Shown here piece by piece: positions 11,113 through 24,077 of a DNA stretch of 59,685 nt. The translations under genes were made by a program, and so were the position numbers. The notes under the pieces are model-generated. The model searched no databases. It was given only the letters and a program-made list of their open reading frames with translations, and had not been told where the DNA came from. Numbering within the stretch: position 1 is the first letter of the stretch; the number at the start of each line of letters is the position of its first letter. The stretch lies in NCBI GenBank assembly GCA_002423155.1, contig DIUV01000012.1, forward strand, positions 1-59,685, read 5' to 3'. The stretch is from Alphaproteobacteria bacterium UBA6149 (lineage in GTDB: Bacteria; Pseudomonadota; Alphaproteobacteria; Rickettsiales; UBA998).

Positions 11113-11270
11113 GTGTAACAAAACCACAGCAATCTTAATATTTGTTTACAATTAAATTTATCTATTGTAACAGTAAAATGCTATTGAAATTCCGCACTCA
11201 GATTGCTGGGATAATATTAGATTTTTCTTTTTTTTCTACGATGAGTAGATTTTGTACGGGAGTACATTTT

Positions 11271-11984
11271 ATGTTAAAATACGACACTAAAACTGTGGTT
11301 AGCACGGGTATAACAGGTATTGTTTTAGGATTGTTAGTTATATGGCTTTGGAAATATCTACAGCAAGCAATTGGCTGGATGGTCACTCCAAATGTAGTGG
11401 AAATAGCAAGCTTTATAACTATCATTTCGGTTGTGGCGATGAATTATGCAAAATTTGGGGTTATTCCCATTAATGGGGTAATCAGAAACAGCGCGTATGT
11501 AATTAGTTGCCTATCTTTCTTGGTAACCTTGATTCGAGAAGAAAATACGGGTGCTATATTGCTACAGATTTTCTTGCTCTATATTACAGCTTGGGGAGCA
11601 GTTAAGGCAAAAATCACTCCGATTACGTTTCATACCAACCAAAGAAAATTTGTGCATGCAAGTTTGAAGCTGGTGGTTTTTTTGAGTGGAAGTCTGTTAT
11701 GCGCAAAATACTGGCCAGTTAATTCTGCGACTCAACTCGTAGGAGAATATTGGCAGTGGATAGCGTTACTAGGTGGCATTGGCAACGCAACCTCTTTATT
11801 CCTTCTGGAAATGAACTTTTTTAAAACTATTCAGCAATTTAGCAAATGCTATATATGCACCTGCTCAGTAGTTCTAATATCTTATCTGGGGGAATATAAT
11901 TATACAGGTGTTGTTTTACACTCTAGTACTTGGTTAATAGCGTTTTATGTGGCGTTTATTGAAACCAGGCTACGGAGTAAATGA
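11271..11984 (+). CDS. Hypothetical polytopic membrane protein with two ~3-TM internal repeats
   Basis: Many hydrophobic segments; similar motifs E-N-T-G-A-I-L-L-Q and Y-N-Y-T-G-V-V-L-H in the two halves; start ATG 11271 has a GGGAG RBS (track start 11142). Confidence 0.6.
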   Translation: MLKYDTKTVVSTGITGIVLGLLVIWLWKYLQQAIGWMVTPNVVEIASFITIISVVAMNYAKFGVIPINGVIRNSAYVISCLSFLVTLIREENTGAILLQIFLLYITAWGAVKAKITPITFHTNQRKFVHASLKLVVFLSGSLLCAKYWPVNSATQLVGEYWQWIALLGGIGNATSLFLLEMNFFKTIQQFSKCYICTCSVVLISYLGEYNYTGVVLHSSTWLIAFYVAFIETRLRSK

Positions 11985-12146: not shown

Positions 12147-12782
12147 TCAACCAGCAAGATAAAGCGATTGCTTATTTCCCAATAATTTTTCATGCAAAGT
12201 CTTTAGCGCGGCAAATTCATGCGGATAGGCAAAATTTTGTTCGGGCATTTGCATAATCTCCGATATAGGTAAAATTTTGATGCCGCGTACTTCATTATGG
12301 GTAGCAACAAAGCTTGCTTGCTTATATTGTTCATCTCCAGTTAGTTTTTGCGCATGTTCTTGTAGTTGAACTAATTCTTCTGCGGTTAGCTCTAAAGCAT
12401 GACCATGATAACAAACTGGTAATGCAGGGTTTTTATAATCAATGCCGGCAGAAATAATTTGTAATCTTTGTGCGTCGGGAGCAATAATCGGCGTCCCTTC
12501 AGCATTCACAACTTCTTCGCGCAATTCGCGCACGGCACCTTCGGCTAATTGCTCTCCTGCGCTATTATTGCTACCTATATCTACATAGCCACCTGGTAAG
12601 CCGAGCCGTCCATCGCAGCGCTCTACTAACAATACAGATGGTTTAGCTTTGCGGCTTTGTATGCCATTACTAAGTGTAGGATTAAAATAACAAGCAACGA
12701 ACGAACCAACCGTCGCGGTTTTTACTGTATGCTCCATGGGTTCGGTTAAACTGGACCATGCGGGGAGTTTATTATCAGTCAT
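12147..12782 (-). CDS. Nudix hydrolase, probable ADP-ribose/NAD pyrophosphatase
   Basis: VLLVERCDGRLGLPGGYVD...GEQLAEGAVRELREEV Nudix box (with insertion); FAYPH resembles the LAFDH motif of ADPR-pyrophosphatase-type Nudix domains. Confidence 0.75.
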   Translation of the reverse strand: MTDNKLPAWSSLTEPMEHTVKTATVGSFVACYFNPTLSNGIQSRKAKPSVLLVERCDGRLGLPGGYVDIGSNNSAGEQLAEGAVRELREEVVNAEGTPIIAPDAQRLQIISAGIDYKNPALPVCYHGHALELTAEELVQLQEHAQKLTGDEQYKQASFVATHNEVRGIKILPISEIMQMPEQNFAYPHEFAALKTLHEKLLGNKQSLYLAG

Positions 12783-12797
12783 TTTTATTCTTTCTTT

Positions 12798-14402
12798 TTA
12801 AAAAAATTTTGATATTTCGTTGTAGAAAGGAGCAAACCCACCAAAAAAGTACTTTGACAATATTGATAAACCATAATAATTACTAATAATTGTTGTGATA
12901 ATTAACAATAATGATGGACATAAATGTATGTGATTTCTAAATGCTTTTAGAAATGAAAAATAAGGGTGGATTTTGATTAAAAATTGTGTTGGCGGGGGAT
13001 AAAAAGCTATTAACATCAACGGCATTAATGGCAGCATATAACGACCTTGAAAGCCATTAATATAATTATTTGTTAATGGATTCCATTGTATATGTAAGGC
13101 GAGTAATGTTAGAAAGAATGTTACTATAGTCACACATACTAATAGAATCCTTATTCTCATCAATAATAACAAGCCATATTTATCGTTATCTTCTTCAATG
13201 GGAGTGCGAGTAAATAATAATAAGAACGCCACAAACATAGCAATAATACTGGAAGTTTTGTTTACAGGTATTTTACTTTCTGTTAGCCCACCAATAGCTT
13301 GAAAAAAAACATCATCTGCCCAAAAGCTTTTATTGGTAAAAGTATTGTATAATATTTTTGCCGCCCGCATAGGTTGTGTTCTTAACAATAACATTTGTTG
13401 TTTAGGAGAGCTATGAATCATTTGATCTGTTTCATCATTCTTAATAAAATTATATTTACTTAGTCTGATTTGTTCGGCTTCTTTTATTTGTGGATCTAAG
13501 CTGTTTGATCTTTCTATTGCTGCTTGTAAAATCTTAACCGCTTCCATATTCCATACCATACCTACAGAGAATGAAATTATAAAAATTGTTGAAATAATAA
13601 TAGCTACCTGCTTGCTAGATTTTCTTATAATGTTAGGAATAAAAAGCAATGTTAGTGAAGTGAAATAAACTATTTTGCTTAAAGCAATAGCTATAGCTAA
13701 AGAAGATGTTATTAAATAATATTTACAAGAGAATACTTTATTTTCATTGTTTGGCGATAAATTTGTTCTTAATAAGAAAGAAACAAACAGCAAAATAAAT
13801 CCTATCGTCAAAGAATCAGCGCTTACCATAGAGCGCCCACACATTGCCATAGGCCACAACATCACGGCACAAATGCTCCATTGTGCGTAGGGAAGTTTCT
13901 TTATTGCATAAGCAATAAGCAACGTGCTTGATAACAATGATATTATGCGCAGCAGATAAAACAATACAAAAGGGGGTGTGTGTAAAGATTGAAAAATATA
14001 AGAAGATATTATAGTAGGAATATATGCGACTGGTGAATATAAATCAACCGTACCAAGATTATTTTGATATTTAACCAGTTCGTTTTTGGCAATATCATCA
14101 TTACCTGCATCTAAAATAGATTTCATAATATCGTAATTATACTGACCATTAAAGCCTATGCGAGGGCGAAAAGAGCTTCCTTTAATTAAAAAATCCACAT
14201 AAGATTTATTAATTTCATATTCTTGCCATATTTTACCTTTAGAATATCCAATAACCCTCATATAATGCCCATATTCATCGTGAGAGCGAAACGGTGGGGT
14301 AATAAATATATATGCAAAGCCTATTACAATGGATAATATAAAAAAAAGTTGATGAGGAAGAATAGGTGCGTTTCTTAGAAAAGAACTTTTATTTTTCAAC
14401 AT
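12798..14402 (-). CDS. GT-C fold integral membrane glycosyltransferase (DUF2142-like, GtrC role)
   Basis: TPPFRSHDEYGHY, LYSPVAYIP, GFQGRYMLP motifs; many TM segments; clustered with GT2 and GtrA genes. Confidence 0.72.
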   Translation of the reverse strand: MLKNKSSFLRNAPILPHQLFFILSIVIGFAYIFITPPFRSHDEYGHYMRVIGYSKGKIWQEYEINKSYVDFLIKGSSFRPRIGFNGQYNYDIMKSILDAGNDDIAKNELVKYQNNLGTVDLYSPVAYIPTIISSYIFQSLHTPPFVLFYLLRIISLLSSTLLIAYAIKKLPYAQWSICAVMLWPMAMCGRSMVSADSLTIGFILLFVSFLLRTNLSPNNENKVFSCKYYLITSSLAIAIALSKIVYFTSLTLLFIPNIIRKSSKQVAIIISTIFIISFSVGMVWNMEAVKILQAAIERSNSLDPQIKEAEQIRLSKYNFIKNDETDQMIHSSPKQQMLLLRTQPMRAAKILYNTFTNKSFWADDVFFQAIGGLTESKIPVNKTSSIIAMFVAFLLLFTRTPIEEDNDKYGLLLLMRIRILLVCVTIVTFFLTLLALHIQWNPLTNNYINGFQGRYMLPLMPLMLIAFYPPPTQFLIKIHPYFSFLKAFRNHIHLCPSLLLIITTIISNYYGLSILSKYFFGGFAPFYNEISKFF

Positions 14403-14414
14403 AAAGCACCAAAT

Positions 14415-15323
14415 TTATTGTGATAAATAATGTAACTGCTTCAATGACCTTCCCATTTTTGATACTGAATCTAAAATAAGTCCACAAGCCATAGAAATGG
14501 TTGAAATAATTGACAAACCTGTACACAATACCGCTGTTGGCAACCTTTCTACAGTTCCCACTGCTATAAAGTTGGCAATAATTGGAACGGCCAATACAAT
14601 CGAAACCAAGAATAAAAACAGAGAAATTGTACCATAAAATAATATGGGCTTGTTGTGCCGAGTAAAATAAACTATTGCAAGCAATATCTTAAGACCATCT
14701 CTATAGGTATTAAGTTTGCTTCTGGAGCCATTTGGACGAGGATAATATTCGGTTTCAATTTCTGCTATTGACAGATTCTGGTCTAGGGCATGTATTGCTA
14801 ACTCTGTTTCTATTTCAAAACTGGAGAAACTAACAGAAAAAGACTTAACAAATCTTCGTGATAACACCCTATATCCAGAAAAAACATCTTCAAAAGCCTG
14901 ACCAAACAATAATGAAATAAGAAATGTAAATAATTTGTTACCAGAAACATGACAAAATCTGTAGGCCATTCCAGCATCAACAGCAACTCTTCTTCCCACG
15001 ACCATGTCTAGTTTGTTGTTTATTAAGAAATCCAGCATTTGCGGTGCCTTACTTATTTGATAAGTTGCATCACCATCCGCCATTATGTAATAGTCTGCCT
15101 CAACATCACGAAACATTCTGCGGACAACACAACCCTTTCCTTGTTTTTTTTCTATCCGCACTATAGCTCCAGCTTTTTTAGCTATATCACCAGTTCCGTC
15201 ATTTGAATTATTATCGTAAACATATATCTTAGCTAAAGGCAAATATAGTTTAAAATCTGATATTACTTTCTCAATAGAGAGGGCTTCATTATAACAAGGA
15301 ATAATAACGGCTATTTCTGGCAT
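14415..15323 (-). CDS. GT2 polyprenyl-phosphate glycosyltransferase (GtrB/DPM1-like)
   Basis: IAVIIPCYNE, DNNSND, GKG, DGDATY, SGYR, FEIETEL; two C-terminal TM helices. Confidence 0.88.
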   Translation of the reverse strand: MPEIAVIIPCYNEALSIEKVISDFKLYLPLAKIYVYDNNSNDGTGDIAKKAGAIVRIEKKQGKGCVVRRMFRDVEADYYIMADGDATYQISKAPQMLDFLINNKLDMVVGRRVAVDAGMAYRFCHVSGNKLFTFLISLLFGQAFEDVFSGYRVLSRRFVKSFSVSFSSFEIETELAIHALDQNLSIAEIETEYYPRPNGSRSKLNTYRDGLKILLAIVYFTRHNKPILFYGTISLFLFLVSIVLAVPIIANFIAVGTVERLPTAVLCTGLSIISTISMACGLILDSVSKMGRSLKQLHYLSQ

Positions 15324-15352
15324 GATACTGCATTACATGTTTTAAATTTAAT

Positions 15353-15775
15353 TTAGATTGGTTTTTTAAATACAACAAAATTATAAAATACAAAGTTAAA
15401 TAATGCTGCAATAGCACTAGATAATAAAATTGAAATATCTCTATTTATAAGTGGGATTATGTATATAATCCCACAGAAAGCAAGGTAATTTATCACCCCA
15501 CCAAAAAGGCTTCCACTAAAATATAAGAAGAATTCTTTGGCTAATCCAACATAAGAAAATAATTCTCTATTTTGTTTGAAAGTTACCGTCCTGTTCCCAA
15601 TCCAAGTTACAAATATCGCAAAAAATATCGAAATTATACGAGAAAACGAATCATCAATGAGGTTTGAAAACATACGAAACACCGCAATATCTACAATCAT
15701 TCCGATAAAGCCAACGGTCAAAAATATTGCCATCTTTTGTTTATTTATCAACACATTCACCAAAGAAACAACCAA
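15353..15775 (-). CDS. gtrA: GtrA-family flippase-like protein
   Basis: FLTVGFIGMIVD, NRTVTF, NFVFYNFVVFK; four TMs. Confidence 0.8.
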   Translation of the reverse strand: MVVSLVNVLINKQKMAIFLTVGFIGMIVDIAVFRMFSNLIDDSFSRIISIFFAIFVTWIGNRTVTFKQNRELFSYVGLAKEFFLYFSGSLFGGVINYLAFCGIIYIIPLINRDISILLSSAIAALFNFVFYNFVVFKKPI

Positions 15776-15853
15776 GCTTTCACAATTTTTTACATATAAT
15801 TTTTTAATGTAGAACGCGTTGGTTTTAGTGTAAAGTTTTAAGTTGTGCTTAAA

Positions 15854-18800
15854 TTATGCTGCCAGTTGAAAACCTTGATCTAACTCATAAGTAGGGCTTT
15901 TTCTAACCTGTTCAGATAGTTCTTTTATGGAGTCCTGTAGTTTATCAAAATCTGCTTCTAGTAATCCAGTTTTGAACTCTTTATCAAAAATCGCCATTTT
16001 ATGGGCAGTTTGCAAACTCATGCCCGTTTTGGCTCTAAAGCCATGTTCACCTAGTTTTTCGTATAATACATCTAAGCTTAACTCTGCCATGTGGGTTTTG
16101 AAATGGTCGCCAATTTCGTGGGTGCGTACATCATCATGCGGAGTTACATTTTTGCCTGTATGCGGTGCGCGAGTGGCTGCGGTGCGCTTGAATTGTCCAC
16201 GCTCCCAAGCATTAGTGAACTTCAACATCATATTGCGTAAAGCCACTGAATCTTTGGGGAACAAATCATCTTGTTTTAAGATTTCAAACGCTTCGGTAGG
16301 CGTATTGCGATCTAACACGATGACATCCACCATTTTATCTCCTTGCGGATAGGTAAAGCCGAAATCTTTTTCGTCGGTTTGTTTTGCCTCGCCTGCTACT
16401 TCTTGGCGCAATTCTGCTGATGGAGCTTGTTGGTTGATGAGTGACAAAGCCTTAATTGGTTTTAACTCTGCCAAACCATTTGCTTCCATGTAAGCAAGGC
16501 CAGCAGTTATATCATGCTTTTGTATGCCCCCTATTGGGTTAGCACCGCCCATATGCATATCACCACCAATAGTAGTATATCCCAAAGCGGATTCAGAAGC
16601 GTTAGAGGTAACCAACGCAATTTTTTTCTGGATATTCCCCAAAGCTCCCGGAGTTATAACCCGAACGCGTGCCTGATAATTTTGCAATGCCACGTCAAAA
16701 GCAGGATCTGACCAAGTGGGTATTTCTTGTTTGCAAGCAGCAGATATATAATCTGGCAATTTAGGATGGCTACCCAAAGGAGCATAAATATAATTGGTAA
16801 TAATTTTCTTTATGCGTCCTTCAGATATATGTAACTGATCTTCTTCGGATAAATTTTCAGTATTTAATCCTTGTAAAGCTATATCTTTATTTTCTCTAGC
16901 AAACCGAGTTAAATCTAGTCCTGAAGAACCAATAATTGCTTCATCAACAATTCTTTGTTGGGGGGCAACGTAAAAATTTCCACCAATACCTTGAATATCG
17001 TGTTCTATGTTTACTATTTCATAGGTTTCTTTTTTATTGTCTTTTACCCATTTTGTTAGTTGATTATTTTCAATTTTATCTAATGTTTGATCAAAATAAA
17101 TCTTCTTGGTGATTGGCTGGTCATGTTCGTCTTTTAAAACATTTCCTTGCTCATCTTTAGCCAATACTTCAACTAAAGTTCCACCTTCAATCAAAAATCT
17201 TGCCGCATCTTGGGTTTCTTTAGAGCTAATATCGGTAGGCAAATAAACGCAGGTTAGAAGATTTTTCTTTATTGCTGCTATGGCTGCTTTTTCACCTTCT
17301 GCTTGTTCTATTTTTAGAGCTTCATCTTTGTATTCAAGTTTTGGAAAATGTTCAAAAAATCCTTTTATGCCATTTTCTTTAACTTCTAATTCCACCATGC
17401 TGGCAACTTCAACCGCACCATAAGCGGAATCTTTTCCACCAGATAATGATACTACAAACCCCTGACAAAAGGGCTGTTTCTGCATATAATCACGCATCCA
17501 CAAAGCAATAGAGCGAGCATATTCTTCATGTTTTAAATCTGACTTTTCAGCATATTCAAAAACATTTTCTGCCCCCGTTGCCTCGCCTACCACGTGCTTA
17601 TCGCTAAAATGATGTTTAATTTCCACATCGGGCTTATAATTGCGCTCCGCCAGAGGGATTTCGGCGACTAAACTACTGGTGGATACGTCTTTGAAACTAT
17701 AACGATCCCCATGATGGACGATTTTACCATTTTGGGCAAAAATCTGGCTACCTTCGGCCGCCATAGTGCCGGAATTGGTGCCTAAGAAATTGGTGTAAAT
17801 ATATGCTCCGCAATGTTGCGAGCCGGTTTCGCACAAACCCTTCGAGCGGATAGATTCTTTATCCAGGCTCGGCTGGGGTTTGCTGGCGCTGGGGTTTAGC
17901 ACCACACCTATATCGGTATCTTTCGATAATCTTGCTAAATAACGCGCCTGTTCTTTTTCGCGGTTATTAATGCTAGAATCATCACCCACGCCCGGCCAGC
18001 CTTCGGCGCAAATTTCGTGGAATAAGGTGATGTGCCGACCATCCGCCGCTTGCAGACCAACCACAGGTTTACCAAAGGGAACTTTTTTGCCGTTCGGTAA
18101 GGCAATTTCAATGGTGCCTTTGCTAACTGGCCAAGCGTTGAATTGGCGAGGTTCGTATTCAGCTGCTCCGTCTGCCAAAATAGACTTAGCAGAAATAGCG
18201 ACCACCTCTCCACCAGCAATGGTTATTTGCGTATTAAAGGGGCGGTTATTGATGTTATATTGTGGATCATCCGCAGGGAAACTTTTATCTGCATAATGCC
18301 AAGGCGCGCCTACGGAAATTACTAAATTGGGGTTTTTATCTTTGGCATATTTGGCGATTAATTGCAGCGCTTCCCACACATGGTCATTATTTTTATTCCA
18401 TTGATGATAATCATCCGCGCCATAGCCCACTAAGCCCATTTCTTCGAGCGCTAAAATATCCACATTGGCTTTTTCCGCTTTATCAATCGCCGCGCAGATA
18501 TTTTTTACGTTAGTAGCAAAATCATAAGAAGTCTGGTTACAACTGCCCGACATAATATTAACCGGAACAGTTGCTTTCACTTGCGTAGTTTTATTCAGCT
18601 CATCCGCTTTGTTTTTCAAACTATCAATAGTTAATTCCTGACCATCTGCTTGCAGCGCCGAAATTATTTGTGCGGTAGAAATATGTTTTTCTTTTGCCAA
18701 ACGGTCTAAACTCAAATCCAACATAGTAAGGGGAATATTTGCCGCTTCTAACGCCTCCGCACTCGGATTAGCGGCGCGTGCCTGCTTAGCCAAAAACACA

Positions 18801-19432
18801 ATATATTCCGGATCAGCAAAGGCAGATTTTTCTTTATCACTTAAATTACGCAAATCCTTCACCCGTAATTGGCTAGCGGCCATAGTGGGGGAGGTTGGTT
18901 GCTCTACCAATGCCGGGAAATTCATTTCCGTGAAAGTTTCTTCCCAGGAATATTGATGTTTTACGCTGCCATCTTCCAAAGTTCGTTGTGCTACGGCATC
19001 TTCAGGTTTGCCGACGAAATAATGCATAGTTTTGTCACGCAAATCTGGGTGCTTGCCGTCTATTTCTATTTCGCCATTTAGTTTGTTGACCAGATTCCGA
19101 CACCAAAGATTATTATTTCCCAAATCTTTATAGCCGACCAAAACATAATCTTTGCCTTCTTCTTTATCATGCAAAGCGCGGCGCAATTGTTCTTTTTGTT
19201 GCTCTAACGTCAACGGGTTTTTGAGCGGGCTAAACAGACCATCATCAAAGCCATTTTCTTTTACCGCTTCGTTGCAAGAACCAATCACAATAATGGGCAC
19301 CAGGCCTTGCTCCATATTCTTACGAATAGTTTTCAAATGCTCCTGATGCAAAGGCTGCCGCCGCCCGAATAAGAGCGAATATTCAATTCCTTGTTCGCGT
19401 GCTTGTTCAAAATTGGCAAAATTCTCAACCAT
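15854..19432 (-). CDS. nadE: Fusion protein: NadM-like NMN/NaMN adenylyltransferase domain + glutamine-dependent NAD+ synthetase (nitrilase + synthetase domains)
   Basis: N-term LFGRRQPLHQEH, IVIGS, KNPLT, MAASQLR (NadM-like); nitrilase triad in LEEMGLVGY / SAKSIL / EICAEGW; synthetase VVSLSGGKDSA, QNYQARVR, SNASESALGY, PSAEL, QTDE, QFKR. Confidence 0.85.
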   Translation of the reverse strand: MVENFANFEQAREQGIEYSLLFGRRQPLHQEHLKTIRKNMEQGLVPIIVIGSCNEAVKENGFDDGLFSPLKNPLTLEQQKEQLRRALHDKEEGKDYVLVGYKDLGNNNLWCRNLVNKLNGEIEIDGKHPDLRDKTMHYFVGKPEDAVAQRTLEDGSVKHQYSWEETFTEMNFPALVEQPTSPTMAASQLRVKDLRNLSDKEKSAFADPEYIVFLAKQARAANPSAEALEAANIPLTMLDLSLDRLAKEKHISTAQIISALQADGQELTIDSLKNKADELNKTTQVKATVPVNIMSGSCNQTSYDFATNVKNICAAIDKAEKANVDILALEEMGLVGYGADDYHQWNKNNDHVWEALQLIAKYAKDKNPNLVISVGAPWHYADKSFPADDPQYNINNRPFNTQITIAGGEVVAISAKSILADGAAEYEPRQFNAWPVSKGTIEIALPNGKKVPFGKPVVGLQAADGRHITLFHEICAEGWPGVGDDSSINNREKEQARYLARLSKDTDIGVVLNPSASKPQPSLDKESIRSKGLCETGSQHCGAYIYTNFLGTNSGTMAAEGSQIFAQNGKIVHHGDRYSFKDVSTSSLVAEIPLAERNYKPDVEIKHHFSDKHVVGEATGAENVFEYAEKSDLKHEEYARSIALWMRDYMQKQPFCQGFVVSLSGGKDSAYGAVEVASMVELEVKENGIKGFFEHFPKLEYKDEALKIEQAEGEKAAIAAIKKNLLTCVYLPTDISSKETQDAARFLIEGGTLVEVLAKDEQGNVLKDEHDQPITKKIYFDQTLDKIENNQLTKWVKDNKKETYEIVNIEHDIQGIGGNFYVAPQQRIVDEAIIGSSGLDLTRFARENKDIALQGLNTENLSEEDQLHISEGRIKKIITNYIYAPLGSHPKLPDYISAACKQEIPTWSDPAFDVALQNYQARVRVITPGALGNIQKKIALVTSNASESALGYTTIGGDMHMGGANPIGGIQKHDITAGLAYMEANGLAELKPIKALSLINQQAPSAELRQEVAGEAKQTDEKDFGFTYPQGDKMVDVIVLDRNTPTEAFEILKQDDLFPKDSVALRNMMLKFTNAWERGQFKRTAATRAPHTGKNVTPHDDVRTHEIGDHFKTHMAELSLDVLYEKLGEHGFRAKTGMSLQTAHKMAIFDKEFKTGLLEADFDKLQDSIKELSEQVRKSPTYELDQGFQLAA

Positions 19433-20060
19433 GGTAGTGTCCCTGTTTTTCGGCTTTAGTTAATTCAGCTGCTGATGTTTTTATTTTTATTGTTGGCTTA
19501 ATTATTTTGGGAGTTAGGGCTTGCTCAATAGTTTTTTCTAAAAATTCCACAGCAGTTTCCATGGTTTGCCGTCTATCCGCTGTGCGTTCTCCCTTAAAGT
19601 GAAATTCATCACACATAAAAACTTCCCCATTAACCGCCGAGGCAATACACACCGTACCCCCAGAAATTCCCCGCGCATCGTCACCATTAGGGCCTGCATA
19701 ACCAGTAACCGCTACCGAAATTTGTGCCCGGGAATTTTTTAATGCTCCCAAAGCCATTTCTCTGGCCACGGGCTGGCTTACTGCCTCATATTCAGCTAAA
19801 GTTTCTGCCTTTACTCCAAGCATATCCTGCTTAGCATCATTATTATATACTATATAAGCACGATCTAACATATTTGAAGATCCGCCCAAGCAGGTAAGCA
19901 AATTAGCAATGCCGCCCCCCGTAAGCGACTCTGCGGTTACGATTTTTATATGATGATTCTTGCACTTTTGCAGCAAACCATCTACGCGGCGCAATAAATC
20001 TGCCCCATAAATATTTAATAATTCAGGGTCGTAAATAGTACCCGAAAGATTATCGCTCAT
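19425..20060 (-). CDS. pncC: NMN deamidase (CinA C-terminal domain)
   Basis: TAESLTGG, YNNDAKQDMLGV, AVS...EMALGA, VTGYAGP, GTVCIA, GER..DR motifs; overlaps the nadE-fusion start. Confidence 0.88.
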   Translation of the reverse strand: MSDNLSGTIYDPELLNIYGADLLRRVDGLLQKCKNHHIKIVTAESLTGGGIANLLTCLGGSSNMLDRAYIVYNNDAKQDMLGVKAETLAEYEAVSQPVAREMALGALKNSRAQISVAVTGYAGPNGDDARGISGGTVCIASAVNGEVFMCDEFHFKGERTADRRQTMETAVEFLEKTIEQALTPKIIKPTIKIKTSAAELTKAEKQGHYHG

Positions 20061-20320
20061 AGCTTAAAACCATATTTGTCATGCATTTTCTGTAGCACAG
20101 ATTCATTAGGCGCATCTCCATAACCTGACTCAATCACTTCACCATATTCAATCAAATTAATCGCCCCCGTTTTGATTTTTTGTAAAAATGAGCGCAATTT
20201 CAGAGCTTCTACTTTCAAGAAAAACCACGCAGGGCGGCCAGTTTTATCCTTGCCACCTTGCACGAGATAAATATTTTGGCTTTCTCTGAAGTTAGAAATT
20301 TTCTGGGCGAAAGAGGTCAT
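20057..20320 (-). CDS. Small conserved hypothetical protein (87 aa)
   Basis: ATG 20320 lies 4 nt after the pncB stop and its stop overlaps the pncC start (ATGA); sequence IYLVQGGKDKTGRPAWFFLKV...YGEVIESGYGDAP looks like a folded domain. Confidence 0.75.
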   Translation of the reverse strand: MTSFAQKISNFRESQNIYLVQGGKDKTGRPAWFFLKVEALKLRSFLQKIKTGAINLIEYGEVIESGYGDAPNESVLQKMHDKYGFKL

Positions 20321-20324
20321 TCTA

Positions 20325-22190
20325 TTATGCTGCCATAGAAGGTGATTTTCCACCAGCTATTTCCAGCGAACCAGAAATATCAGTACCAGGTTTATTCATA
20401 GACGCCATAATTGCCTGACGTTGTTTTAAAACCAATGGGTCCATCAAAATTATTTGTGGTTTGGGGTCGTCTAGTCTTTTTATTTCCTCAGATAGGCTGG
20501 CTCGTTGAGCACGGGCGTAAGTTTTAATCTCATCTAAGTCAGTAACTTCTGGGCCGCCTTTATAAGCAGGTTTAGTTTTAGGCGCACCATGCTCATTATA
20601 AACATATTTAGAAGCAGCATCTTTTTGACGCACAAAGATAGGTTTCAACAAAGTTTCGGCTGACGCAACCTCGCCTACGTCTATTTTATTACCTGCGGTA
20701 TCTACGATACCATCTTGTAGCAATTCACGCCAGTTATCACCACGACGCAAAGACTCATCAATAATAACATCCGCCAATATTTTGCCATTAGCATCTTTTA
20801 AGCGCAGCGTATTTAGCTCTACTCCTGGCATAGAAGATTTAGGGCCAGGAAGCGAAGGATCATTTTTATCCACTCCCGCAACTTTCATAGTGCGTACCAT
20901 ATCTTTGGTAATCGGCACAACTTTCTGGTTAACTATAGCAGTTTTAACTTCGCCATTTTCTAAATTTGCTTCAAAATCTTCATGAATAATTTCACTCGCA
21001 GATATTTTGTAAACTCCTCCGCGTAATGGCCCTGGATTGCCTAATTCGGTGCCTACTCCGTAAACTTGGATAGGTAATTTTTCGCCTTTTTCTTCTATGC
21101 TACGTTTTTGCATCGCATGAATAGATTTTTCATCTAAACCATCAGTGGCAAAAATCTTGGTATTATTAAATAATTCAGGGTGGGTTTGGCGTGCTTCGTC
21201 TAGCAATGCTTTTGCTTCCCAGCTTAATGCATATAAATCACCCGAATCCAAACGCACACCGTCTAACTCTACGTTCATTTCTATGGCCGCACGAATAGCG
21301 TTTTTAACCCCCTGTACGGGATCAAAAGTATCAACTAACAATACTGAATTATTCGCCATGCTTTTTAAATAAGCTTTAAAAGCAATTAGTTCTAACTCGC
21401 TATTGCCAACATTAGGCCATGCGGCATCAACGGTTTGTTTTACATTATTTTCAAAAAATTCCCTGTCGTCACTGGTGTAATAAGGGCTTATCCATTCAAT
21501 CCCTGCTTTTTTAGCTTCTACATAGCCCTCAAAAGCGGCTTTAAAGCCCATAATCCAGCTATGCGCCATAGTTCCTGTGGGCGGAATACCCAATACACGC
21601 GCGGCATCAACATCCGCCGTAAAGGCGGCGCCACCAATATAAGAAGCACGAGAAACCCCAGCGTCTAAAGTGCCAGAACGGCGTAAAGAAAAATCGGCAA
21701 AGGGGCGACCTTGTCCTGCTTCATCAATCCGCGCACCACGAGTTGCAATAATTGAAGCAGAATTCATAATATTTAAAATAGCCGACTCGACTAATTGCGC
21801 CTGAACTAGAGAACCAGTAATCCGCAAAGCAGGCCCTTGCCCAAGCATAGCGGTTCCCTCGGGCACTGCATCTACTTGTAAATTAAGTTTAGAATTAGCT
21901 AGATAATTTAAAAATTCTTCAGAGAAAAGCCGCTCGCCTTTTTTCTCTAGGGTACGCAAATAGGCAATTTTTTCTTCATCAAATTTGAAATTATTTAAAA
22001 AATCAACTACACCCTCTAAACCAGCAGCAACCGTATAACCACCACCAAAGGGAGGATTGCGCCAATGCATGTAAAAAGTTGCTTCTTCTTCCTGCCGACC
22101 TTGGTCAAAATAACCTTGCGCCATGGTTAACTGGTACATATCGGTTTTAGTCGGGTTTAAATCCCGGTAGCTTTTTTCTAAATATCCCAT
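20325..22190 (-). CDS. pncB: Nicotinate phosphoribosyltransferase, with insertions and C-terminal extension
   Basis: TDMYQLTM, RNPPFGGGY, DFSLRR, GTMAHSW (phospho-His), LLVDTFD, GVRLDSGDL, GVGT; likely start ATG 22190 with AAAGGA RBS (track start 22250). Confidence 0.88.
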   Translation of the reverse strand: MGYLEKSYRDLNPTKTDMYQLTMAQGYFDQGRQEEEATFYMHWRNPPFGGGYTVAAGLEGVVDFLNNFKFDEEKIAYLRTLEKKGERLFSEEFLNYLANSKLNLQVDAVPEGTAMLGQGPALRITGSLVQAQLVESAILNIMNSASIIATRGARIDEAGQGRPFADFSLRRSGTLDAGVSRASYIGGAAFTADVDAARVLGIPPTGTMAHSWIMGFKAAFEGYVEAKKAGIEWISPYYTSDDREFFENNVKQTVDAAWPNVGNSELELIAFKAYLKSMANNSVLLVDTFDPVQGVKNAIRAAIEMNVELDGVRLDSGDLYALSWEAKALLDEARQTHPELFNNTKIFATDGLDEKSIHAMQKRSIEEKGEKLPIQVYGVGTELGNPGPLRGGVYKISASEIIHEDFEANLENGEVKTAIVNQKVVPITKDMVRTMKVAGVDKNDPSLPGPKSSMPGVELNTLRLKDANGKILADVIIDESLRRGDNWRELLQDGIVDTAGNKIDVGEVASAETLLKPIFVRQKDAASKYVYNEHGAPKTKPAYKGGPEVTDLDEIKTYARAQRASLSEEIKRLDDPKPQIILMDPLVLKQRQAIMASMNKPGTDISGSLEIAGGKSPSMAA

Positions 22191-22261
22191 GATTTTTCCT
22201 TTTTTGTTTTTATTTGGCAAAAAGTTTAATGATTTTTTATATCTTGTCAATTATTTATTAA

Positions 22262-23458
22262 CTAAATAGCAATATCTGCACGCTGCCAACTAGCCACACG
22301 ATTAGCAAAAGGCGAAGGCTTGGTGAGCGCTAATGGTATTTTCTGTTGCCGCGTCAACTCTTGCGCGATTAATTTCCCGGTCGATAAAATCGCCACGCGC
22401 TCTTTTAATTCAGGAGAATTTAGTTCCTTACGTTTTTGTTCTATTTCAAAAACCGAGTCGGTACAAACCACTTGGTCTATCAGATTTTTTCCTGCAAATT
22501 GCGGCTCTAGTAGATTTTCCAATGCGGATTTCCCGTCTTTGCCGATGCAAATTGCGTGGGTGAAATAAGTGGCAACCGATTTTGCTCCACGCTCTTTCAA
22601 AGCCTTAGCAGCATTAATCAAAGTACCACCACCATCGCTCATATCATCGATTATTACGCAATCTTTATCTGCAACATCCCCCTCGAACCCAGCAACAAAA
22701 GTTTCGTTAGCGGATTTATGCTCTTTGGCGATTTTAAATAAATGCACATCCGCCGCCTCTTCGCTGGTATCTTGCACGGCGGCGGCGAGTTTTCGTGCAC
22801 GGATTTGTCCGCGATCATTAGGTTTATCCGCCCCATCAGGAGCTCCAATAACCATATTGTTTAAATTAGGAAAACGGGTTTTTATATCCTGCGCAAAAAG
22901 TTCGGTGCTAGATAAATAGTTATAATTTTCACCAAACTCATCTTTCCAGAATTTTACCGTTCCTTCGGAATGCGGTTCGATAGTAATGATTTTATCCGCC
23001 CCATCTGCGCGTAAATCACGAGCAAAACGTTTGGCATTTACTGAACAAATACGCCCTTGTTCGCTAAAAGGTCTATCTTGGCGGTCGTATGCGCAATTGG
23101 GCATCGCTACCGTAACTTCTTTTACCCCATGGTCTTTTAAGGTGGTAATAGTCGAACGAACGCGCTCTATACTATCACTTACTATATCTGGTTGTTCACC
23201 AGTTGATTCAACGATTGTAACTTTAGCATGACGTAATTTCGCCAAATTTTCCTGATAACGTTTCTGGGCGTCCGCATGGCTGGTAAGCTCACGCTCATCC
23301 CGCAAAAAAGGAAATAATTCACAATGGACTGCACCGCTATTAAAGGGTCCAAAACTGACATCAATTTTCTCCCCTTTAAAATTTTTAAGAATTTCCTCTC
23401 GGCTTTCCTTCGTAACTCGCGGACCAAAGATAATGTAATTTTTATTATTATTTTGCAC
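22262..23458 (-). CDS. prs: Divergent ribose-phosphate pyrophosphokinase (PRPP synthetase family)
   Basis: AYDRQDR, GADKIITIEPH, APDG, KDCVIIDDMSDGGGTL, LKERGAKSV...THA motifs; likely GTG start at 23458 with GGAG RBS. Confidence 0.8.
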   Translation of the reverse strand: MQNNNKNYIIFGPRVTKESREEILKNFKGEKIDVSFGPFNSGAVHCELFPFLRDERELTSHADAQKRYQENLAKLRHAKVTIVESTGEQPDIVSDSIERVRSTITTLKDHGVKEVTVAMPNCAYDRQDRPFSEQGRICSVNAKRFARDLRADGADKIITIEPHSEGTVKFWKDEFGENYNYLSSTELFAQDIKTRFPNLNNMVIGAPDGADKPNDRGQIRARKLAAAVQDTSEEAADVHLFKIAKEHKSANETFVAGFEGDVADKDCVIIDDMSDGGGTLINAAKALKERGAKSVATYFTHAICIGKDGKSALENLLEPQFAGKNLIDQVVCTDSVFEIEQKRKELNSPELKERVAILSTGKLIAQELTRQQKIPLALTKPSPFANRVASWQRADIAI

Positions 23459-23531: not shown

Positions 23532-23789
23532 ACAATTGTCACCCTACACGACAGTACCGTTAATATTACGAAGCTATTGAATGGTAAGTATTTATTTCTT
23601 AAAATCGCTCTCTCCGTCGTCATTCCTGCTGCGGCTAAGAATCTCTTTTTCCGCTTGTGAGTGCCTCGTTTAGGGCGAAAGAGATTCTTAGCCGCAGCAG
23701 GAATGACGACGGAGAGAGCGAACTTTTTTATTGTATTTCAATATATAAATGCCTTGTTAATACTACTGTCGTGTAGGGTGGACAATTGT
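23532..23789. repeat. Nested palindromic element (family 3)
   Basis: Outer IR ACCCTACACGACAGTA / TACTGTCGTGTAGGGT; perfect 44-bp inner arms 23605-23648 and 23678-23721 containing GTCATTCC..GGAATGAC REP-type ends. Confidence 0.8.
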
Positions 23790-24000: not shown

Positions 24001-24077
24001 TGGTGCACCCAGAGCGATTCGAACGCCCGACCTTCTGATTCGTAGTCAGATGCTCTATCCAGCTGAGCTATGGGTGC
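24001..24077 (-). tRNA. tRNA-Arg (anticodon ACG)
   Basis: GCACCCA acceptor stem, TAGCTCAGCTGGATAGAGC D-arm, CTGACT-ACG-AATCAG anticodon arm, GTTCGAATC T-loop, encoded CCA end. Confidence 0.97.

Follow-up and report, generated by a model that had tools for sequence, protein, structure and literature searches.

Rebuilding of nicotinamide adenine dinucleotide (NAD) from its breakdown products has been described for the phage pathways NARP1, NARP2 and NARP3 (10.1101/2024.02.11.579819; PMC13586617; PMC13464706, in the sections drawn on here). The NrtR-type salvage operons treated in the consulted part of another study come in the arrangements pncB-nadD-nrtR-nadE, pncA-pncB-nadE and prs-nadV (PMC2330246), and excerpts of a further paper describe NadM acting with NadE in archaea, Acinetobacter and Francisella, with nicotinamide mononucleotide (NMN) or nicotinate mononucleotide (NaMN) as substrate (PMC3376133). 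Here we analyse a cluster of NAD enzymes at positions 12147..23458 of a 59,685-nt stretch (the window) of contig DIUV01000012.1 from the Rickettsiales bacterium UBA6149, whose genome we label G000. The original prediction held that these genes may form a dedicated NAD-reconstitution module conceptually similar to NARP, distinct from housekeeping copies. Our analysis suggests an alternative, in which the cluster is very probably the cell's own NAD route, as it holds the sole NadE, pyridine-nucleotide adenylyltransferase, PncB and PncC that we found, downstream of a de novo pathway. The attention that had been drawn to the enzyme tails was well placed, since PncB ends in a C-terminal tag shared with unrelated enzymes of related clusters, and a small protein encoded next to it is predicted to dock there.

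The proposed gene order and co-orientation are as described, with nine open reading frames (ORFs) all on the minus strand, and the genes from pncB to nadE do abut or overlap (pncB to the small gene +4, small gene to pncC -4, pncC to nadME -8; the spacing of prs and pncB is 71 bp). Comparison with homologue starts places the probable true starts at ATG 23458 (prs), 22190 (pncB) and 20320 (the gene for the 87-amino-acid, or 87-aa, protein). Pfam and NCBIfam assign Prs, PncB, PncC, Gln-dependent NadE, GtrA, GT2, DUF2142 and Nudix families to the cluster ORFs and no family to the 87-aa protein. The motifs with catalytic roles are kept in all five enzymes, namely those of PncB, Prs, PncC and Nudix together with the glutaminase triad and the synthetase loop; the NadE half of the fusion is of type F, combining the Glu-Lys-Cys triad with an SGGxDS synthetase. 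The N-terminal domain of the 1192-aa protein gives only weak matches by sequence (E 5.6e-6) and is firmly identified as NadM by its modelled fold (predicted local distance difference test, pLDDT, 90), for which the best match is NadM (Z 14.4, root-mean-square deviation, rmsd, 3.4, 178 aligned; best phosphopantetheine adenylyltransferase Z 12.8), with GRxQPxHxxH and SxS-like motifs sitting on that fold. NadM takes the place of NadD, as in the known NadM/NadE systems, and differs from them in being fused to a Gln-dependent NadE. The missing nadD suggests that this domain uses NaMN, and a route through nicotinate adenine dinucleotide (NaAD) is favoured over the NMN route of Francisella by the presence of PncC in the operon and of NadD beside the NadE clade in 5 of 15 related loci.

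The 2.1-Mb genome, in 60 contigs and 99% complete, encodes NadA and NadC and likely NadB (a full-length match below the profile cut-off), and canonical nadD, nadE and pncC were not found in it. When five canonical NadEs from kin were used as queries, only the cluster gene matched, as it did with canonical NadE and NadD profiles; of the two adenylyltransferase-like matches elsewhere, one is a 172-aa CoaD-like protein and the other a 498-aa frame. nadD occurs in 17/17 kin of the same family; here rsfS stands without an adjoining nadD, and etfA and gltX, the flanking genes of nadE in two kin, occur here with no nadE. In 8/11 kin loci pncC follows ispDF-pgpA, and here no pncC follows pgpA on an unbroken contig. 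A fully complete genome, G043, carries the NadM-NadE fusion and likewise lacks recognizable canonical nadD and nadE, and in G025, which has the NadM domain alone, nadD was not found. Stand-alone NadM domains of the same clade lie at L025:7535-8221 and L026:9504-10193, both in genomes without a clear nadD. The de novo path upstream, and the lack of any other NadE, adenylyltransferase, PncB or PncC, argue for an in-house route and against a spare anti-defence module. The cluster copies are the only ones found for every enzyme except Prs, a canonical copy of which is encoded on contig C50.

Known enzymology would lead through the cluster as follows. NaMN would come from NadB, NadA and NadC, from nicotinate and phosphoribosyl pyrophosphate (PRPP) by PncB, or from NMN by PncC; the NadM domain would convert it to NaAD and NadE would convert NaAD to NAD, with Nudix and Prs turning ADP-ribose (ADPR) into PRPP. 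The Nudix assignment extends to the family and not to a substrate. The NAD enzymes of the proposed closed loop are present, while the loop stays open for NAD cleaved to ADPR and nicotinamide; the lack of a nicotinamidase, previously noted for the cluster, extends to the whole genome, where no PncA was found, and nicotinamide is therefore not reusable by the cluster genes unless PncB accepts it. A TLC nucleotide importer was not found in this genome either. As to the supposed absence of NrtR and NadR, the cluster proteins give no helix–turn–helix (HTH) or NadR family match, which stands for these proteins, the rest of the genome not having been searched for either.

The cluster enzymes are nevertheless not ordinary vertical orthologues, as had been argued at the outset. 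Among 61 kin genomes (G000 included), the NadM-NadE fusion occurs in 3 and PncB in 5, and a FastTree phylogeny of 66 NadE rows sets 51 clade NadEs apart from 5 canonical ones and beside generic 660-aa enzymes. This clade is a FastTree grouping with no one-clade test, and Prs, PncB and PncC were placed by score gaps and tails, without trees; the NadE clade appears to be patchily spread in Rickettsiales and other alphaproteobacteria. Vertical descent is thus not what the NadE tree and the PncB distribution point to. The 15 related loci, from 14 genomes (five further metagenome loci are left out of these counts), contain PncB in 11, PncA in 10, Prs in 5, NadD in 5, NadM in 4, Nudix in 4 and nadE alone in 4, with PncB-PncA, Nudix-Prs and NadE-NAD kinase fusions among the relatives. 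Canonical NadE is kept beside the clade copy in 8/14 genomes, and nadD scores above the cut-off in 11/14, some of these being cluster copies. Codon usage of the cluster is native. At the least, the cluster would seem to have displaced nadD, nadE and pncC as one mobile operon, and it can be read as a variant of the known salvage operons, one that replaced three housekeeping genes and carries a new tag-partner pair.

The tag, P-x-x-x-I-x-G, stands at the C-termini of unrelated enzymes in five clusters; ten tails from PncB, PncA, Prs and NadM of 5 genomes align with P and G invariant, and in locus L036 four unrelated enzymes are tagged, among them an inositol-monophosphatase domain fused to a NadM domain (L036:9101-10813). 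A weight matrix built from these ten tails, with its threshold at the 99th percentile of the scores of 269 conserved proteins, recovered 8/10 on leave-one-out and, out of sample, placed 5/6 close PncBs and 0/129 generic PncBs above threshold. Among clade Prs proteins 8/76 pass (4 strongly, one of them a training row). The small gene is found in 4/15 related loci, which are the tagged ones (the positive side by construction), and none of the 32 enzymes in the other 11 loci is tagged. It always lies directly after a tagged gene, an adjacency seen in 5/5 clusters.

A complex model with full-length PncB places the 87-aa protein on PncB residues 599-615 only, with a docking score of 0.63 (runs 0.64, 0.63 and 0.29) against 0.00 for the best control; the runs share at least 90% of contacts and partner pLDDT is at least 75. 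In an approximate calibration with our own alignments, 116/157 solved and 2/215 mismatched pairs reach the docking mark. The model makes it probable that the 87-aa protein binds the PncB tag. Its own fold gives a best Z of 3.6 (rmsd 3.9, 57 aligned) among 48,161 chains, and Foldseek returned no match at E 0.001, which shows neither novelty nor the absence of a known fold. The family occurs in 51/61 genomes with 1 to 11 copies each; if the prediction is right, it gains a precise candidate ligand, which bears on substrate recognition by the rvh type IV system. In a sample of 40 hand-picked loci from 12 genomes (40 copies found), 20/28 close upstream neighbours in the same orientation have no G000 homologue (the count excludes a 102-aa ORF in L068), compared with 74/281 and 77/279 proteins in bulk DNA, where the threshold differed slightly, and all 18 upstream neighbours tested lack a Pfam family. 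An SFAxK-like stretch occupies the N-terminus in 23/30 family rows, and the top Prs relatives carry an SFAxR-like motif in 6/20, the tag in 5/20 and both in 0/20, too few for significance; this start and this exclusivity offer a lead, and only a lead, to an adaptor that might lend an export signal to tagged cargo. G000 holds five paralogues, at C13:58718-59026, C3:93608-93880, C21:4805-5143, C51:552-908 and C26:19886-20164, the last overlapping the end of a 202-aa gene of unnamed kind. Others lie directly behind 2-hydroxyacid dehydrogenases (L075:1855-3261, L076:3004-4660, L088:1914-3232), which may mean that further metabolic enzymes are treated in this way.

The likeness to NARP, as far as the consulted sections of those reports go, lies in the rebuilding of NAD from breakdown products and in the pairing of a Prs-like gene with a phosphoribosyltransferase; the purpose may be the same, though in another cell. 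Kinship, however, is not borne out. At the loop residues of NARP1 Adps (Cys215, Phe221 and Phe223), the cluster Prs has Ser, Leu and Asn, its loop DDMSDGGGTLIN resembling that of E. coli Prs, and an Adps/NARP identity was rejected on these residues. Where NARP1 has Namat, of the Nampt/NadV family, beside adps, the neighbour here is PncB by TIGR01513, with no NadV model among the matches listed; an NMNAT-type domain is all that is shared with NARP2 (Nampt and Nmnat), as the nine proteins gave no Nampt match, nor did they give a PnuC or NadR family match as in NARP3. The cluster route is deamidated (PncB, PncC, NadE), and it is chromosomal among core genes, whereas the three NARPs are phage-encoded. 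Phage Prs-like matches all fall below 60% identity (24-30% among the 12 matches listed), no relatives of the NadE were found in viral contigs, and a phage origin was rejected, as was a defence system, for which PADLOC gave only a weak phosphoribosyltransferase match. Closer at hand are the NrtR-type operons, which, in the part of that study drawn on here, share the clustered enzyme set and a second prs dedicated to salvage; they differ in that no HTH regulator is seen among the cluster proteins, in the catalytic-type Nudix and the NadM-NadE fusion, and in the tag with its small partner and the lineage-specific tails or signal-peptide-like starts of the cluster family.

Several observations hint at export, among them the redundancy of NadE in 8/14 clade genomes and the orphan-like upstream neighbours of the small-gene paralogues. 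G000 carries a virB8-virD4 run, VirD4 is found here and in four tagged genomes, and DotA is present in 5/5 untagged genomes tested. Tails differ by lineage, with the tag or an SFAxR-like motif in some and Pro/Lys/Arg-rich ends in others. The SFAxR-like motif occurs in the last 30 residues of 17/1495 proteins, compared with 5 to 7 in control windows, by a pattern that missed the cluster Prs, which makes it a possible shared signal at most. Three clade NadEs and one untagged PncB have a basic-hydrophobic stretch ahead of the enzyme domain, and in two genomes with such signal-peptide-like starts canonical nadD and nadE were not found and TLC nucleotide importers are present. The rvh effectors, in the consulted portion of their description, have variable C-terminal tails that bind VirD4 (PMC11077975); the cluster comes from the same order and a genome with the same machine and has variable tails, and its secretion is our hypothesis. 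A secretion chaperone would be encoded beside its substrate and bind a short unfolded stretch of it; by its adjacency and its predicted site on the PncB tail, the 87-aa protein is a candidate for that role.

The 150 best PncB relatives include polyproteins of 2,432 to 2,927 aa. In P0173, P0228 and P0257, a signal-peptide-like start precedes joined PncA, PncB and NadE, no membrane segments come later, two of the three also contain Nudix and one NadD, and P0170 adds a weak Prs match; together with P0217, these proteins of 2,400-5,000 aa cover a large part of the loop for NAD salvage, and four of the five have signal-peptide-like starts. These distant polyproteins seem to resemble the giant proteins of Omnitrophota. 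The genes of the window are, unlike those, separate and without a signal peptide. Omnitrophota are presumed predators, and the parts consulted of two preprints describe cytoplasmic-type enzymes behind a signal peptide (10.1101/2023.11.21.568195; 10.64898/2026.06.07.730766), with no mention of nicotinate or nicotinamide enzymes in the main-text portions. The portion used of PMC11077975 mentions neither 'NAD' nor 'chaperone', and an exported NAD pathway or such a chaperone is not described in the consulted parts of that paper, of PMC9503650 and PMC9803151 or of the two preprints. Within the literature searched, itself partly in excerpt, a cellular predator or symbiont exporting an NAD-rebuilding pathway is not described.

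Our best explanation, to which we give a probability of about 0.45, is that the cluster supplies the sole NAD genes of this cell, that the 87-aa protein acts as a tag-docked adaptor, and that the pathway passes into a cell of the host or prey. The 87-aa protein would dock on the PncB tag as a secretion chaperone, the type IV system would deliver the pathway, and NAD would be rebuilt there; an export-type module would probably have moved horizontally and, in this genome, left three native genes without a necessary role. Taken by itself, export of the enzymes by the type IV system has, in our estimate, slightly less than even odds. More tentatively still, predatory or endosymbiotic bacteria might inject a whole NAD-rebuilding pathway, either to counter suicide defences that deplete NAD or so that the host makes NAD for them, exporting it in three ways (tag, chaperone and rvh; other tails and Dot/Icm; signal peptides or polyproteins), with the 87-aa family as the first general Rickettsiales type IV effector chaperone. 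NAD rebuilding as counter-defence has been described for phages, and if export of such a pathway by a cellular predator or symbiont is true, metabolic repair of the victim would be an effector strategy.

A good deal weighs against delivery. The enzymes are needed in the producer cytoplasm here, and in the absence of PncA nicotinamide is not recycled; 6/14 clade genomes lack a recognizable canonical NadE, and contig C51 terminates in a high-copy repeat 115 bp after proA, where kin carry nadD. VirD4 is present in 61/61 kin and is thus uninformative, also in company with the small gene. No clade NadE is tagged (0/49), and PncB alone is tagged in the window cluster. The tag profile returned from 5 genomes the training genes and one chance match inside glyA, in a search that is weak for so short a motif; the tag pattern matched 0/51 orphan proteins of G070, orphan proteins score on the matrix like conserved proteins, and 3/28 paralogue neighbours pass. 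A classifier for orphan-like tails was weak (area under the curve 0.74); it gave canonical NadEs high ranks and placed the window PncB and NadME among ordinary proteins. The signal-peptide-like starts were judged by hydrophobicity with no predictor, one NadE of that type is split into 728- and 135-aa frames (L205:6159-8842), and the narrow taxonomic range may stem from how far the pattern scan extended. Loose tail patterns showed no enrichment genome-wide, and a genome-wide secretion signal was tentatively set aside in view of these patterns, the weak classifier and a tag profile that found little but its training genes.

A rival account is a purely intracellular, horizontally moving salvage operon, in which the tag and small protein would serve to assemble or stabilise the enzymes, to inhibit them or to time their turnover, with no export. 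We regard this as a serious contender, if short of probable: it accommodates the sole nadD, nadE and pncC function here, the native codon usage and a tag confined to the cluster, and comparable salvage operons that include a second prs are widespread (PMC2330246, consulted sections), while it leaves unexplained why ATP- and PRPP-dependent enzymes should have signal-peptide-like starts, why 8/14 genomes are redundant and why paralogues of the small gene lie beside orphan genes. A self-protective role, NARP-like in purpose, in which the producer would replenish its NAD once NADase toxins or defence enzymes have struck, is unlikely. Nudix, Prs, PncA, PncB, adenylyltransferase and NadE would jointly rebuild NAD from ADPR and nicotinamide, and the frequency of PncA (10/15) and PncB (11/15) at related loci and the Nudix-Prs and PncB-PncA fusions are in keeping with this; however, PncA was not found in this genome, Adps and Namat features, relatives in viral contigs and a real PADLOC match are lacking, and the tag and signal peptides would have no role. 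It is very unlikely that canonical nadD and nadE are hidden in assembly gaps and the cluster is purely accessory, as originally proposed: the assembly is in 60 contigs and C51 stops just after proA in its repeat, but completeness is 99%, rsfS is present without nadD and etfA and gltX without nadE, pncC is missing on an unbroken contig and G043 likewise shows neither nadD nor nadE of the canonical kind. A chance gathering of ordinary, vertically inherited housekeeping genes would agree with the only copies found and the native codon usage, and yet this account is scarcely credible given the distance of the NadE from canonical kin NadE in the tree and the rarity of the fusion (3/61) and of PncB (5/61) among kin.

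Table 1. Cluster genes and neighbouring features, in window positions
Feature	Position	Strand	Remarks
Second Prs (PRPP synthetase)	22262..23458	-	Loop DDMSDGGGTL Prs-type; tail contains SPFANRV
PncB, nicotinate phosphoribosyltransferase	20325..22190	-	621 aa from ATG; passes TIGR01513 equivalog, 331 over 297 bits
PncB C-terminal tag	20346..20396	-	Residues 599-615, NKPGTDISGSLEIAGGK; predicted docking site for 87-aa protein
87-aa protein	20057..20320	-	Unnamed multi-copy family throughout the order; adaptor or chaperone predicted to bind the tag
PncC, NMN deamidase	19425..20060	-	About 30 additional C-terminal residues; sole copy found
NadM-type adenylyltransferase and Gln-dependent NadE fusion, 1192 aa	15854..19432	-	NadM domain ~18686-19384
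gtrA-gtrB-DUF2142 glycosylation cassette	12798..15775	-	GC content at third codon positions (GC3) in 3rd to 8th percentile
Nudix hydrolase	12147..12782	-	211 aa, Nudix box intact, nearest solved relative NUDT16
tRNA-Arg(ACG)	24001..24077	-	Neighbour
Palindromic repeat, ~260 bp	23533..23787	.	Dozens of genomic copies

The glycosylation cassette intervenes between nadE and Nudix, which abut in loci L033 and L036, and this adjacency together with the low GC3 makes the cassette likely to be a later insertion. The Nudix N-terminus is ~35-50 aa shorter than in kin, and the surface-glycosylation cassette may have clipped the 5' end of its gene. The cluster had been placed directly 3' of a tRNA-Arg; tRNA-Arg(ACG) does lie upstream, but ~540 bp away, across a palindromic repeat found genome-wide. 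A genomic island at this site was rejected, as no duplication of the tRNA 3' end was seen, codon usage is native and the arrangement is not conserved (tRNA-Arg at 0/15 related loci). The same repeat lies at the end of contig C51, where it breaks the assembly. Promoter and terminator scans stayed at chance level (46 vs 36.6 and 12 vs 11.9, respectively), and Rfam returned the tRNA plus hairpin look-alikes below the gathering score and nothing else. A 280-aa membrane protein without a Pfam or PADLOC family (window 11142-11984) is convergent with the operon end. Just upstream of the NAD cluster in L033, a CoaD-CoaE fusion and an M23-Nudix fusion (L033:2848-6150), both with long tails, may form a parallel coenzyme A module.

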